A stretch of 64,000 bases of DNA from a virus. The notes beneath the pieces are model-generated. The model did not search any database and was not told where the DNA came from. It was given only the letters and a program-made list of their open reading frames with translations. The stretch lies in the IMG/VR virus record IMGVR_UViG_3300032898_000001, positions 1-64,000 of that record; one strand, 5' to 3'. Positions 54,628 to 59,018 of this stretch are shown here, piece after piece (the first letter of the stretch is position 1; each line of letters starts with the position of its first letter). Position numbers and translations under genes: made by a program.

Positions 54628-54659
54628 ACCATATCACCTGCCACGCCATTTGTAAACAC
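54628..54659 (-). promoter_or_regulatory. Conserved phage promoter
   Basis: GTG-TTTACA-N17-TATGGT. Confidence 0.8.
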
Positions 54660-54666
54660 CCTCACG

Positions 54667-54707
54667 TAAAAAGTGGGGCCGCCCTCCCCGAAGAAGAGCG
54701 GCCCCAC
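54667..54707 (-). terminator. Intrinsic terminator of the RNA operon
   Basis: GTGGGGCCGCTCTTC-TTCG-GGGAGGGCGGCCCCAC-TTTTT. Confidence 0.85.
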
Positions 54708-55025: not shown

Positions 55026-55096
55026 CACCTGGTCGAGGGATCGAACCTCGTTCTGCGCTTTTGGAGAGCGCCGTGCTGCCACTGCACCAACCAGGC
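55026..55096 (-). tRNA. tRNA-Trp(CCA)
   Basis: Cloverleaf; anticodon arm GCGCT-CTCCAAA-AGCGC; no encoded CCA. Confidence 0.9.
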
Positions 55097-55215
55097 CCGA
55101 CCGATCGCTCCCACGTAAACCGGGACGCCGTGTACCAGGGGCCAGGCCCCCGGCATCGCGCTCGCCTCCCGGACCATCTTCTCCATACCCCATCCCGGCG
55201 GTGGTCCGAGCGCGA

Positions 55216-55353
55216 TCAGTCGTCTGTCTCTCGAGGCTCATCGCAGTCGACGCAAGAGTCGAACCGCTCGCTGTCGATGTTGAACCGGTGCCCGTGCACC
55301 TCACACGCGGTCCACTCCGAGAAGTCGATCTCGTCTCGTTCCTGGGTCTCCAC
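55216..55353 (-). CDS. 45-aa Cys/His micro-protein inside the RNA operon
   Basis: GAGGAGG RBS, GTG; CEVHGH..CVDC. Confidence 0.5.
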   Translation of the reverse strand: METQERDEIDFSEWTACEVHGHRFNIDSERFDSCVDCDEPRETDD

Positions 55354-55509
55354 GTTTTGCCTCCTCTCTACGAACCGCGACGAGCCCGAACCAAACCACG
55401 TCTCGTCTCGAGGCACCCTGCAACGAATGTCGCGTTGGGCCGTCCCACCAGGAGGCCGTTCCTCGTCCTCCACGGCATGAGACTGGTCTCGCCGTGCCTC
55501 TTCCCTACG

Positions 55510-55580
55510 AGCCGTACCGGGGAATCGAACCCCGTCCCGCTGGTTGGAAGCCAGATATGCAGCCACTACACCAGTACGGC
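55510..55580 (-). tRNA. tRNA-Gly(TCC)
   Basis: Cloverleaf; CTGG-CTTCCAA-CCAG; U discriminator. Confidence 0.88.
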
Positions 55581-55685
55581 ACACGGGACGGTTTCTACCT
55601 CCGACGCCTCGGCGTGCATACCCCCATCGAGCTCGTTACCGATCCCGAACGGTCTAGCTCCGACGTACGTCCCTCGGACCTCACG

Positions 55686-55756
55686 TGCCCCACGCCGGGA
55701 TCGAACCGGCGACCACTGGATGAAAGCCAGCGATGTTGCCACTACACCAGTGGGGC
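55686..55756 (-). tRNA. tRNA-Glu(TTC)
   Basis: Cloverleaf; GCTGG-CTTTCAT-CCAGT. Confidence 0.88.
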
Positions 55757-55758
55757 GA

Positions 55759-55869
55759 GAAGAGGGTGACGGGAGTCGAACCCGCCCAGCGGACCGTCGT
55801 CCTTTTGGCGTACGCCGTCAGCCCTGACGCTCCGGGAGTCGAACCCGGATACTGCCGGTTACCCTCTTC
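55759..55869 (-). ncRNA. Double-T-arm tRNA-like RNA (no anticodon)
   Basis: Closing stem GAAGAGGGT/ACCCTCTTC; T-arms CCGGG-TTCGACT-CCCGG and GCGGG-TTCGACT-CCCGT. Confidence 0.65.
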
Positions 55870-55871
55870 AG

Positions 55872-55943
55872 CTGACCCGGGAGGACTCGAACCTCCAACC
55901 ACCTGGTTAACAGCCAGGAGCTCTGCCGTTGAGCTACGGATCA
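55872..55943 (-). tRNA. tRNA-Asn(GTT)
   Basis: Cloverleaf; CCTGG-CTGTTAA-CCAGG. Confidence 0.92.
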
Positions 55944-55947
55944 TTGC

Positions 55948-56079
55948 GTGGGCCTCTGCCGCTGAGGTACCGATCGTGATCGTTCTCACCGTACCCGGTC
56001 TTCCGCCACGCGGTCCTTCGGGTCGTGCTCGAGCGACCTGCCAAACGATCGAGAGGGACTCGAACCCTCGTCTTCCCAC
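55948..56079 (-). ncRNA. Circularly permuted tRNA-like RNA (YrlA-like topology)
   Basis: 5' GTGGG-AAGAC-[GAGGG TTCGAGT CCCTC]-TCGATCG-insert-CGATCGG-TA-[CCTC AGCGGCA GAGG]-CCCAC 3'. Confidence 0.7.
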
Positions 56080-56081
56080 CG

Positions 56082-56153
56082 CGCCATCGACGGGAGTCGA
56101 ACCCGCTGCCACCTGGCTGACAACCAGGCACTCTACCGTTGAGTTACGACGGC
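56082..56153 (-). tRNA. tRNA-Asp(GTC)
   Basis: Cloverleaf; CCTGG-TTGTCAG-CCAGG. Confidence 0.92.
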
Positions 56154-56158
56154 CTAGC

Positions 56159-56227
56159 ACGGTAGGGCTGCAACCCGCTGGGGAATCGAACCCCACCCTA
56201 CCGCTGACGACCGTGGCCACGGTCGTT
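56159..56227 (-). ncRNA. Mini T-arm structured element
   Basis: Palindrome ACGACCGTG/CACGGTCGT; stem GCGGTAGGG/CCCTACCGT enclosing TGGGG-TTCGATT-CCCCA. Confidence 0.5.
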
Positions 56228-56229
56228 TG

Positions 56230-56301
56230 TACCCCACGCGGGGATCGAACCCGCGTCTCCTGGCTGAGAACCAGGTGTGACTGCCACTGCACCAGTGGGG
56301 C
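56230..56301 (-). tRNA. tRNA-Glu(CTC)
   Basis: Cloverleaf; CCTGG-TTCTCAG-CCAGG. Confidence 0.88.
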
Positions 56302-56305
56302 TTTC

Positions 56306-56396
56306 CCGAGGGCCTAGCACCTGCGAGGGCTCGAACCTCCCACCGGTTACCAGCCGGTCGCTCCTGCGCCGGGTGTCGAACCCGGTAGGTCCTCGG
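56306..56396 (-). ncRNA. Double-T-arm RNA flanking an anticodon-like hairpin
   Basis: CCGAGG..CCTA/TAGG..CCTCGG stem; CCGGG-TTCGACA-CCCGG; ACCGG-CTGGTAA-CCGGT; GAGG-TTCGAGC-CCTC. Confidence 0.6.
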
Positions 56397-56439
56397 TTCG
56401 GCGGTAAGGTTTGGTTTTCCTGACCGCCTGGTAGTACCT

Positions 56440-56471
56440 ACTATACCAGCCGCGGGGCAGCTTGTAAACAG
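56440..56471 (-). promoter_or_regulatory. Promoter of tRNA/ncRNA operon
   Basis: CTG-TTTACA-N17-TATAGT. Confidence 0.85.
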
Positions 56472-57412: not shown

Positions 57413-57922
57413 TCAGTCACACTGCTTCGGGTCGAGCGTCGGTGGCAGGTCGGCGCCTCGCCAATCCTCGGTGAGGAACGACTGCGCTGCCGTGTCGTAG
57501 TCCTGGATGTGGTTCAGGCAGTCGCGCTGGTCGCCCTGCAGGGTCACCTGCAGGTTCCCGTACTGCTGTGCGTCCGGGTCGTACGGGGTGCCGTTCCCGG
57601 ACCAGTCCGGGTGGGCCTGCTGGAACTGGGCCAGGTTCGCCTTGTCGGTCGCGATCTTCTGCACGTCAAGAGTGACCGCGTTCTGGTCGAGGTGGAACTC
57701 CTGCTGTGCGGCGAGGAAGTTCTGCGTCGAGTTCTTCTGCTGGACCGCGTTCCCCTGGCCCCACCAGTACGAGAACCCGGTGGTGATCCCGAACACGAGC
57801 GCGATAAGCACGAGAACGGTCAGGATCACGGCCACGACGGCCTTCGTCACCGTCCAGAACGGGCGGCGTTCCAGGTCCTTCTCCCAGCCCGCCGCGGACC
57901 GCCGCCACGGGTCCCGGGCCAT
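57413..57922 (-). CDS. Membrane-anchored coiled-coil protein
   Basis: N-terminal TM, coiled coil, Y..AA..W..ADLP..LD; TGATG-coupled to lipoprotein. Confidence 0.65.
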   Translation of the reverse strand: MARDPWRRSAAGWEKDLERRPFWTVTKAVVAVILTVLVLIALVFGITTGFSYWWGQGNAVQQKNSTQNFLAAQQEFHLDQNAVTLDVQKIATDKANLAQFQQAHPDWSGNGTPYDPDAQQYGNLQVTLQGDQRDCLNHIQDYDTAAQSFLTEDWRGADLPPTLDPKQCD

Positions 57923-58536
57923 CACTTGCCGCCGACCTTGGCCAGCCCGCCGTAGTTGATCGCCGGGGCCTGGCCGACGTTGTAGGTGACGATCGGCTGC
58001 TGGGTGATGTTCTGCGGCACGTCCGACTCGGAGATGATCACGCCGGCGAAGATGTGCTCCGCGCCCGACGTGTCGAAGAAGTCGGCGGTGCCGAACTCGG
58101 GGCCGTAGGTGCCGTTGTCGGTCGGGGAGTTGACCGTGCCGCAGGCGTAGCCGCCGTTCCCGCCGTCGTTGCAGACCACGTCCGTGGTCTCGGTCATCGA
58201 CGAGTTCGGGTCGAACACGAGCCCCTTGATCGACCCGTTCCACAGCACCTGGCCGTACGGGGTCATGACCGTGACGTAGCGGGTCTCGTTCGGGTCGTTC
58301 TCGCGGAGCTGGTGCTCCTTGATCTCCTGCTCCTCGGTGAAGCCGCCGTTGAGCACCTGGCTCTTCGGGAACGGCACCTTGGCGTTCGCGGCGGCCTCGA
58401 TCTGGCCGGTCAAGTTCTCGTTGTTGGTCTCGGCGGTCGACGCCGAGGTGTTGCCGTCGTTGCAGCCCACCAGGATCAACCCGACGCCCGCCAGGCCGGC
58501 CACGGCCAGGGCGACGCGCTTGGTCTTCGCTCTCAT
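57922..58536 (-). CDS. Lipoprotein
   Basis: Basic n-region, h-region, lipobox LVGC. Confidence 0.75.
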   Translation of the reverse strand: MRAKTKRVALAVAGLAGVGLILVGCNDGNTSASTAETNNENLTGQIEAAANAKVPFPKSQVLNGGFTEEQEIKEHQLRENDPNETRYVTVMTPYGQVLWNGSIKGLVFDPNSSMTETTDVVCNDGGNGGYACGTVNSPTDNGTYGPEFGTADFFDTSGAEHIFAGVIISESDVPQNITQQPIVTYNVGQAPAINYGGLAKVGGK

Positions 58537-58571
58537 TCGCTTCCTCGTTCTCTTCTCGTTGGTTGGGTTGG

Positions 58572-59018
58572 CTACAGGCTGGGGTCGGCGGCGATGACGT
58601 CACCGATCTGCGGGAGGGTCCGGTGCAGCTCGTCGTTCAGAAAAGACAAGCTCCTCACGGCGTTCGGGACATCCACGTTCGAGACATCCACGTGTGTGAG
58701 GCGCACGTCGGGGTTCGCCATCCTGAGTCCCGCCCACTCCTGGACGTCCCGTGGCAGGAACGACCCGTATATGGGGACCGCCGTGACGCCCGGTCCGACC
58801 CGGTAACGCTCGTTGTCGCTGCCGTACCACGCCCGGTTTTCCGGGTCCTCGCGGACCCACAGGTCCGTCAGCACGCCGAGGCAGCAGAAGGTCCCGCGAG
58901 GCACGCCCGGCGCCGGGTCCTTCACGAGCGTGCCGCAGAGCTGCCCGCGGGCCTGCTGGTACTCGGGGGAGCGGCAGGCGTCGGCCCAGCGCTGCTTGAT
59001 CTCGGGGTTCATGCTCAC
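58572..59018 (-). CDS. Hypothetical protein, CCLGVL family (paralog A)
   Basis: MNPEIK..W..Q..G.L..CCLGVL..LP.V..WAGL..LND..QI. Confidence 0.7.
   Translation of the reverse strand: MSMNPEIKQRWADACRSPEYQQARGQLCGTLVKDPAPGVPRGTFCCLGVLTDLWVREDPENRAWYGSDNERYRVGPGVTAVPIYGSFLPRDVQEWAGLRMANPDVRLTHVDVSNVDVPNAVRSLSFLNDELHRTLPQIGDVIAADPSL

Follow-up and report, generated by a model that had tools for sequence, protein, structure and literature searches.

A putative non-decoding tRNA mimic with two nested T-arms in the tRNA operon of a soil or wetland phage

What is the 111-nt element that fills the gap between two tRNA genes in the tRNA operon of a soil or wetland phage? Annotations of such operons in phages usually list tRNAs and "spacers"; here, four of the spacers are closed and T-arm-bearing, and the one at 55759-55869 carries two T-arms, in two tRNA top halves of which one is nested in the other. 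The DNA analyzed, referred to below as the window, is the first 64 kb of IMG/VR record IMGVR_UViG_3300032898_000001 (G000 designates the full record), a complete 95.5-kb phage genome with direct terminal repeats and ~66% G+C. The genome encodes a tape-measure protein, a family A DNA polymerase, a primase and a helicase, the polymerase being closest to those of actinobacterial phages (35-40% identity).

The operon and the fold of the element

The element lies on the minus strand, within a 1.8-kb unit bracketed by a promoter and a terminator. The landmarks that define this unit and the borders of the element are as follows:

56440..56468, minus strand: operon promoter, sigma-70-like TTTACA-17-TATAGT, TG extended
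55871..55943, minus strand: tRNA-Asn(GUU), CCA not encoded; its 3' processing would set the 5' end of the element
55685..55756, minus strand: tRNA-Glu(UUC), CCA not encoded; its RNase P cut would set the 3' end of the element
54673..54707, minus strand: strong intrinsic terminator of the operon, 16-bp stem followed by a T run

Reading from the promoter, the operon consists of spacer A (two T-arms), tRNA-Glu(CUC), spacer B (one T-arm), tRNA-Asp, spacer C (one T-arm), tRNA-Asn, the element, tRNA-Glu(UUC), a further spacer, tRNA-Gly, a 45-codon ORF and tRNA-Trp (i.e., six tRNAs, the element and three other T-arm-bearing spacers). All of its spacers are closed and structured, four of them, the element included, folding with T-arms. 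The exact GGTTCGANNCC motifs are strongly clustered: 12 of the 14 in the 64-kb window are on the minus strand within 55037-56382, six inside tRNAs and six as orphans. The element sits exactly where an initial sequence-only reading had placed it, between tRNA-Asn and tRNA-Glu(UUC), with gaps of 1 nt on its 5' side and 2 nt on its 3' side, and the flanking tRNAs score 55-67 bits.

Several other features of the operon are worth recording in their own right. Spacer A, at 56302-56440 (minus strand), is a second two-T-arm element, unrelated to the first. Its closing helix CCGAGG.CCUA/UAGG.CCUCGG surrounds a T-arm (CCGGG-UUCGACA-CCCGG), then a D-arm-like hairpin (CCGG-CUGGUAA-CCGG) and, directly after it, an imperfect T-arm (GGAGG-UUCGAGC-CCUCG). 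The motif GUGCUAGGCC is confined to spacer A and the end of spacer B (56320 and 56160). The 45-codon ORF between tRNA-Gly and tRNA-Trp, at 55216-55353 (minus strand), has a GTG start after GAGAGGAGG and, since it contains C-x-x-H and C-x-x-C pairs, may encode a small zinc-binding protein; the ORF list wrongly prolongs it through tRNA-Gly to 122 aa. A promoter-like site, TTTACA-17-TATGGT, is found directly past the operon terminator (54628-54656, minus strand). Just upstream of the operon, a 396-aa ORF at 57413-58603 (minus strand) may not be a real gene, with no PHROG or Pfam match and no homologue among 5.8 billion proteins. CCA-adding enzyme and RtcB, sought as possible partners, are both absent from the phage genome.

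Read on its transcribed strand (55869 to 55759), the element has a minimum free energy (MFE) fold of -52.5 kcal/mol in which every component named in the sequence-only reading is present, confirming that the observation described at 55759-55869 is real. The components, in transcribed order, are the following:

55861..55869, minus strand: 5' strand GAAGAGGGU of P1, the 9-bp terminal helix (MFE; pair probability 0.91-1.0; shuffles)
55859..55860, minus strand: AA junction between P1 and P2, common to the L222 mini element described below
55854..55858, minus strand: 5' strand CCGGC of P2, the inner helix (pair probability 0.58-0.75)
55849-55853, minus strand: 5-nt linker AGUAU, preceding T-arm 1
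55832..55848, minus strand: T-arm 1 (inner), CCGGG-UUCGACU-CCCGG, 5-bp stem (probability 1.0)
55817..55828, minus strand: hairpin GUCA-GGGC-UGAC, 2-3 nt past T-arm 1 (MFE, pair probabilities)
55807..55816, minus strand: hairpin GGC-GUAC-GCC (probability 0.72-0.74)
55803-55806, minus strand: AAAA preceding the next hairpin
55791..55802, minus strand: hairpin GGAC-GACG-GUCC (probability 0.98)
55786..55790, minus strand: 3' strand GCUGG of P2 (pair-probability calculation)
55769..55785, minus strand: T-arm 2 (outer, 3'), GCGGG-UUCGACU-CCCGU (probability 0.72-0.8)
55759..55767, minus strand: 3' strand ACCCUCUUC of P1 (MFE, pair probabilities, shuffles)

The two T-arms proposed within a nested 111-nt fold are both 17 nt long, perfect and canonical, with 5/5 stem pairs and the full UUCGA loop consensus. 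They are ~46 nt apart and belong to different helical stacks. The minihelix-like top drawn from the 9-bp terminal stem and the 3' T-arm is also seen in the MFE structure. The nine pairs of P1 (GAAGAGGGU/ACCCUCUUC) are all Watson-Crick, with a pair probability of ~1.0 for the helix, and T-arm 2, which lies outside the inner helix, stacks on P1 across a single unpaired C (55768). The outer stack is thus made of 9 bp, a 1-nt bulge and 5 bp, which amounts to 14 bp.

An inner stem enclosing a T-arm and a CGTCAG/CTGACG hairpin is likewise present in the MFE structure. For CGUCA/UGACG, the pair probability is 0.85 for three pairs, 0.69 for the loop-closing one and 0.16 for the outermost one. When GUCA-GGGC-UGAC is considered as a sealed acceptor-like stem, it comprises 5 bp plus 2 mismatches. 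A GG-containing D-like loop, which the sequence-only reading had placed in the inner part, is disfavored by the energy model: those Gs pair in the GGAC/GUCC hairpin with a probability of 0.98, and the D-stem has zero pair probability. An alternative fold with a tRNA-like D-stem can be written with U8, A14, G18G19 and an A15-U48 Levitt pair, but it is ~10 kcal/mol costlier (-42.9 versus -52.5).

The z-score of the whole fold is modest at -2.67 (2/200 shuffles as good), and -2.53 when the T-arms are fixed (17/1000 shuffles as good). When the T-arms were kept and the other 77 nt were shuffled, a terminal helix of at least 7 bp arose in 0/1000 shuffles, compared with 9 bp in the element. This shows that the terminal helix is not a chance feature.

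Comparison with tRNA, tmRNA and Y RNAs

The element is not a tRNA. As first read, it has no anticodon loop: ARAGORN in default, intron and mitochondrial modes returned nothing at 55759-55869, relaxed thresholds yielding only partial nonsense calls, and cmscan found no match in the element to tRNA (RF00005) or tRNA-Sec at E≤10. The T-arm of tRNAs (5-bp stem, G53-C61, UUCRANY loop) occurs twice, at 55832-55848 and 55769-55785, but a 7-bp acceptor continuous with the T-stem in a 12-bp stack is missing. Since the outer stack is bulged and 9+5 bp rather than tRNA-like 7+5, CCA addition or aminoacylation is doubtful, and recognition by RNase P or CCA-adding enzyme of a 14-bp stack instead of a 12-bp one is uncertain.

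Nor does the element correspond to a tmRNA, although it resembles the tRNA-like domain of tmRNA (RF00023) in having an acceptor helix and a T-arm without an anticodon arm. Its third pair is A-U, not the G3:U70 of tmRNA, it lacks an mRNA-like reading frame and pseudoknots, and ARAGORN -m found no tmRNA in the genome. Local T-arm matches to RF00023 (13.5 and 13.2 bits) are the sole Rfam matches on the element, and Rfam 15 has no family for it. A protein-coding role was rejected as well, the three overlapping ORFs crossing tRNA genes and having no Pfam match. The same is true of an attP core (i.e., a tRNA 3' fragment used for integration), since the genome, which is complete, encodes neither a tyrosine nor a serine recombinase.

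A closer comparison is offered by Y RNAs. The phage carries a TROVE/Ro60 (Rsr) gene on the plus strand (G000 74270-75940), and ahead of this gene lie tRNA-Val, tRNA-Met and YrlA-like RNAs (35.1 and 30.8 bits). The element might then be a divergent true Y RNA, binding the phage Ro60/Rsr and linking it, via two tRNA-like modules, to partners that bind tRNA. This would fit the double-T-arm elements in the rsr-linked arrays of relatives (see below) and the inner order of the element, where a closing stem, a 5-nt linker, a T-arm and a hairpin recall YrlA topology. It would also fit GGUCCGC at 55787-55793, which matches at 6/7 positions the Y RNA motif GGUCCGA contacted by Xenopus Ro60 (PMC4201824), a match that we estimate to occur by chance about once per seven such sequences. 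The location of the element argues against this identity, since it is 18 kb from rsr and on the opposite strand, whereas YrlA genes are no more than ~4 kb from rsr and share its strand (PMC4201824).

The putative Rsr-binding sequence of this phage group points in the same direction. A motif GGUGCG(A)-N10-13-UACUUC, whose GGUGCG(A) is one base away from the Xenopus Ro60 contact, has five copies in the genome, none of them outside 73.19-74.09 kb; they lie upstream of rsr on the plus strand (L025 390-1290), and each array in relatives G001-G003 has four or five copies. The motif is probably the Rsr-binding handle of the group. It has no copy in the window operon or beside the double-T elements of the relatives. 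Neither GNCGAAN0-1G nor a GGUCCGA-like motif is found near the 5' end of the element, whose only candidate, GGUCCGC, is in its 3' half. One unit of the rsr-linked array, L025 1114-1212, combines a D-arm, an Ile-like anticodon arm, a T-arm, a closed acceptor hairpin and a second D-arm.

Covariance models were equally unsupportive. The Rfam YrlA family (RF02553) had no match in the element at E≤10. We therefore also used R1, a group-specific model of 22 permuted YrlA cores from phage rsr arrays, which are regular: a 5-nt V, a T-arm, an abutting 6-7-bp hairpin, two nt and a 4-bp D-arm with GG. R1 recognized T-arm 1 only, as a local match of 12.9 bits, and no permuted core was found. Its best matches in the operon mostly join the T-arm of one unit to the D-arm of the next tRNA, a known artifact in Y-RNA searches (Chen et al. 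2014, PMC4201824). The element as a canonical YrlA was thus rejected by both models. Elements of similar topology are, moreover, found in phages without a TROVE gene (five whole records), and Rsr is present in 0/80 double-T loci outside this phage group.

In sum, the element shares with YrlA Y RNAs (RF02553; PMC4201824) a tRNA-derived, anticodon-less make-up, with a closing stem around a canonical T-arm and, after it, a closed acceptor-like hairpin, as well as its setting: a Ro60/Rsr phage, co-transcription with tRNAs and a sister spacer of YrlA type. It differs from them by the missing Rsr motif, its distance from rsr, an unrecognizable D-arm, an acceptor-like hairpin that is offset by 2 nt and only 5 bp long, and a second T-arm stacked on an open terminal helix. 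The failure of R1 and Rfam and the missing handle mean that, by these sequence comparisons, the element is not a Y RNA, even if ancestry and neighborhood are common to it and Y-RNA modules; the divergent version of this identity is accordingly improbable in our view.

Spacer C is different. At 55944-56080 (minus strand), it is a genuine YrlA-type permuted core without the Rsr handle, in which a closing GUGGG/CCCAC is followed by V (AAGAC), a T-arm, a 7-bp stem (UCGAUCG/CGAUCGG) with a ~70-nt insertion in the acceptor-like loop, UA and a D-arm (CCUC-AGCGGCA-GAGG). Its V/T and D arms are near-identical to those of cores in relatives G001 and G002 (L157:2901-2971 and L156:2877-2948).

G001-G003, which are relatives of this phage by polymerase, have a single tRNA/Y-RNA array immediately upstream of rsr. 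These arrays contain tRNA-Glu(CUC) and tRNA-Asp, as the window operon does, and this common content makes the operon look like the detached 5' part of an rsr-linked array. After tRNA-Asp, each relative has a double-T-arm element (G002 L156:3025-3149, G001 L157:3049-3196 and G003 L148:2832-2976) with a 9-10-bp closing helix. The three helices (GGUGAGAUCC, GUUGAGAUC and GUUGAUGUUG) differ in sequence and yet all pair perfectly (i.e., they covary). Their order is a leading GC hairpin, the closing helix, T-arm 1, UGGAYG, a 5-7-bp hairpin, T-arm 2 and CYGGUGGUA. This wiring is unlike that of the element under study, in that T-arm 1 abuts the closing helix and a conserved CYGGUGGUA follows T-arm 2.

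The outer shell and other double-T-arm RNAs

A homologue search, which the sequence-only reading had suggested as a check, gave a split answer: no full-length homologue was found, and the outer shell was matched in two metagenome contigs. Full-length homologues numbered zero in IMG/VR, JGI metagenomes, GTDB genomes and the relatives of the phage, in searches where records almost the same as this genome may have been masked. With R2, a single-sequence model of the element (the E-values of R1 and R2 are rough), we found no counterpart in G001-G003 and nothing convincing over the rsr-phage loci (best score 21.6 bits). No close relatives were found via a neighboring 174-aa ORF. Among DNA patterns, the only match in viral contigs was two adjacent tRNAs, and the 115 double-T matches in metagenomes included none homologous by blastn. 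With D-type and mini-type 5' patterns, most of the matches were real tRNAs in which AGGGNAACCGG is the D-loop sequence. Since there is no full-length homologue, the inner helices show no covariation, and selection on the element would be a presumption.

The partial match is to a 50-nt element in L180 and L222, two soil-type metagenome contigs, to which R2 aligns at 32.6 bits (E 3e-4) with the inner 67 positions skipped:

L222:2187-2241 and L180:226-280, plus strand: single-T-arm element, 50-55 nt, 11-bp closing helix

This mini element consists of helix strand GGAGAGGGG, AA, CCGGCGAGCGG, a T-arm (GAGGG-UUCGACU-CCCUC), CA and CCCCUCUCU, the alignment spanning 2189-2238 in L222. The outer shell (helix, AA, CCGGC stub, T-arm and CA) is thus common to it and to the element, with 14 of the first 16 nt identical. 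Two P1 pairs are compensatory between the two (A-U to G-C and U-A to G-C). Both the identity and the compensatory pairs were taken from the R2 alignment and the sequences, because MAFFT misplaced the 5' end. The mini element folds robustly, with a z-score of -3.84 (0/200 shuffles as good). In L222, a high-GC contig, it occupies an intergenic region without tRNAs, ~20 nt downstream of an orphan T-arm, and the contig has no protein similarity to this phage.

These comparisons suggest how the element might have arisen. To judge from the sequences, its inner 63 nt, which contain T-arm 1 and three hairpins, look like an insertion in the stub hairpin of a single-T-arm shell. The T-arm of tRNA-Asp is matched without a difference by an 18-nt run that covers T-arm 2 with a 1-nt shift, which fits recent recombination. 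Between T-arm 1 and one T-arm of spacer A, the difference is a single nt. The 5' GGGUAACCGG of the element resembles a D-loop plus D-stem remnant of real tRNAs and, like the tRNA-Asp identity, points to assembly from tRNA parts by recombination.

The outer half also has counterparts among known top-half mimics. Plant mitochondrial t-elements are tRNA-like signals for RNase P and RNase Z (Forner et al. 2007, PMC1920247). As in these, in mascRNA (RF01684) and in L180/L222, the ends of the element form an acceptor-like helix that stacks on a T-arm of consensus type, and only a stub stands in for the D and anticodon arms. Unlike in these mimics, the stub has 63 nt inserted in it, including a second T-arm. 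The stack measures 14 bp in the element and 17 bp in L222, as opposed to 12 in the top half of a tRNA. The element also differs from top-half processing signals in being part of a tRNA array, which has no need of a further cleavage signal, and any cleavage of the phage members would be putative.

Other double-T-arm RNAs came to light in the course of this work. The topological look-alikes L078, L123, L071 and L030, which R2 picked out among the double-T loci at 22-34 bits, were not counted as family members, because two T-arms bring ~26 bits by themselves and, in L078 and L030, the MFE fold does not bear out the topology. A conserved RNA of 103-104 nt (L173:4966-5060, minus strand, and >15 other marine metagenome contigs, including L191, L210, L214 and L233), with a variant in L183, L185 and L209, has no Rfam family. 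It combines a 7-8-bp acceptor-like helix (GACUGGU/ACCAGUC) with two T-arms of the GAGGG-UUCGACU-CCCUC type and has no anticodon arm. As its first T-arm occupies the place of the anticodon arm, relaxed finders call such RNAs tRNA-Ser(CGA). Three low-GC phage contigs (L053 at 1586, minus strand; L065 at 2410, plus strand; L075 at 429, minus strand) have in common a 91-93-nt two-T-arm RNA with ends UAGUCAG../..CUGACUA. The L075 copy passes the gathering score of Rfam tRNA (31.3 bits), read as a tRNA that contains a large insertion, and this contig has further over-long tRNA matches of 104 and 142 nt.

Possible roles of the element

We favor, with a probability of roughly 55%, the reading that the element is a released, non-decoding tRNA mimic composed of two top halves, of which the decoy or adaptor role is the least secure step. 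It would be a non-coding RNA made of two tRNA top halves, one inside the other. Its outer half is the 9-bp acceptor-like helix, which is open and stacks on T-arm 2. A 5-bp helix connects the three-way junction to the inner module, made of T-arm 1, the closed acceptor-like hairpin and two small hairpins. A single promoter would have the element co-transcribed with the six tRNAs and the three other T-arm spacers. The 3' end of a tRNA is made by RNase Z or trimming and its 5' end by RNase P. Since the element fills the spacer between two CCA-less tRNAs of one operon, processing of its neighbors by the host (at the 3' end of tRNA-Asn by RNase Z or trimming, at the 5' end of tRNA-Glu by RNase P) should free an RNA of ~115 nt. 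The ends of this RNA, locked in the terminal helix, should be protected from exonucleases.

As a stable RNA, such a mimic might display its T-arm/acceptor surfaces, of which it has two, to elbow-reading proteins, possibly RNase P, RNase Z, TruB, TrmA or some other partner. Its biology would resemble that of the tRNA-like modules of the phage's own Rsr Y RNAs minus the Rsr-binding handle, and it would perhaps serve as a free decoy or adaptor rather than as an Rsr tether. As for its origin, an element of the L180/L222 type with a single T-arm would have acquired, within its stub hairpin, a module with another T-arm.

The element could alternatively be evolutionary debris, left when near-identical T-arm repeats in the tRNA and Y-RNA-like genes of the array recombined, tolerated as a spacer, cut out and degraded, with no function beyond spacing the neighboring tRNAs. 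This possibility is a serious one, if clearly the less likely. The close kinship of both T-arms with others in the array and the D-loop-like 5' GGGUAACCGG count in its favor; the element is also a singleton, with no counterpart in G001-G003 or other rsr phages, and its inner module fails the YrlA-core model. Debris would not be expected, though, to have two T-arms intact in all stem pairs and loop consensus bases, nor a 9-bp Watson-Crick helix that never arose in 1000 shuffles and ends 1-2 nt from the tRNA borders. The other spacers of the operon are likewise closed and structured, and the outer shell recurs with compensatory changes in an unrelated contig.

A bolder version of the favored reading, to which we attach little credence, is that the element is a selected, stable, two-headed mimic, either a handle-less companion of Ro60/Y RNA or an anti-defense decoy, one of a broader class, as yet undescribed, of RNAs with several T-arms that phage tRNA operons would encode. 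Offering two acceptor/T-arm surfaces together, it would then titrate or bridge host factors acting on the top half of tRNAs. Candidate factors would be RNase P, RNase Z, CCA-adding enzyme and the MenT/AbiE-type toxins that modify tRNA acceptors in actinobacteria.

It is also unlikely that the element acts in cis, as a processing or insulating module that recruits RNase P/RNase Z or stops adjacent pre-tRNAs from misfolding with each other and whose excised RNA is waste: plant t-elements are such signals (PMC1920247), the L222 mini element, intergenic in an mRNA region without tRNAs, would suit a processing signal and all operon spacers are closed structures, but the two flanking tRNAs already provide both cleavage sites and make extra signals redundant, two T-arms and an elaborate inner module exceed what insulation needs, and the 14-bp stack is unlike the RNase P ruler. 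That ruler corresponds to the 12-bp acceptor/T-stem stack that RNase P measures.

Other RNAs offer further parallels. The tRNA cluster of T4 encodes RNAC and RNAD, which, to our knowledge, do not have two T-arms. Like these small stable RNAs "of yet unknown functions" (PMC9697503), the element would be a non-tRNA RNA made with phage tRNAs, a likeness by description. Two T-loops in one RNA also recall the interdigitated double T-loop motif that Lehmann and colleagues reportedly described in 2013 in RNase P, T-box stem I and the L1 stalk. In that motif, interlocking 5-nt T-loop motifs bind the tRNA elbow; unlike them, those of the element are complete tRNA-type T-arms. RNAs that look like tRNAs are thus already known, and what is new here is the nesting of two T-arm/helix units in one closed RNA.

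If the element is only debris, the lesson is one of caution in annotation, as such loci produce long false ORFs and, at low thresholds, false tRNA calls. If such RNAs accumulate, phages would have a repertoire of non-decoding tRNA mimics that extends beyond Y RNAs. This bears on how phages manipulate host tRNA processing, modification and tRNA-targeting defenses, on the binding partners of the tRNA-like modules of Y RNAs, a question open since 2014, and on the origin of new structured RNAs through the shuffling of tRNA parts.
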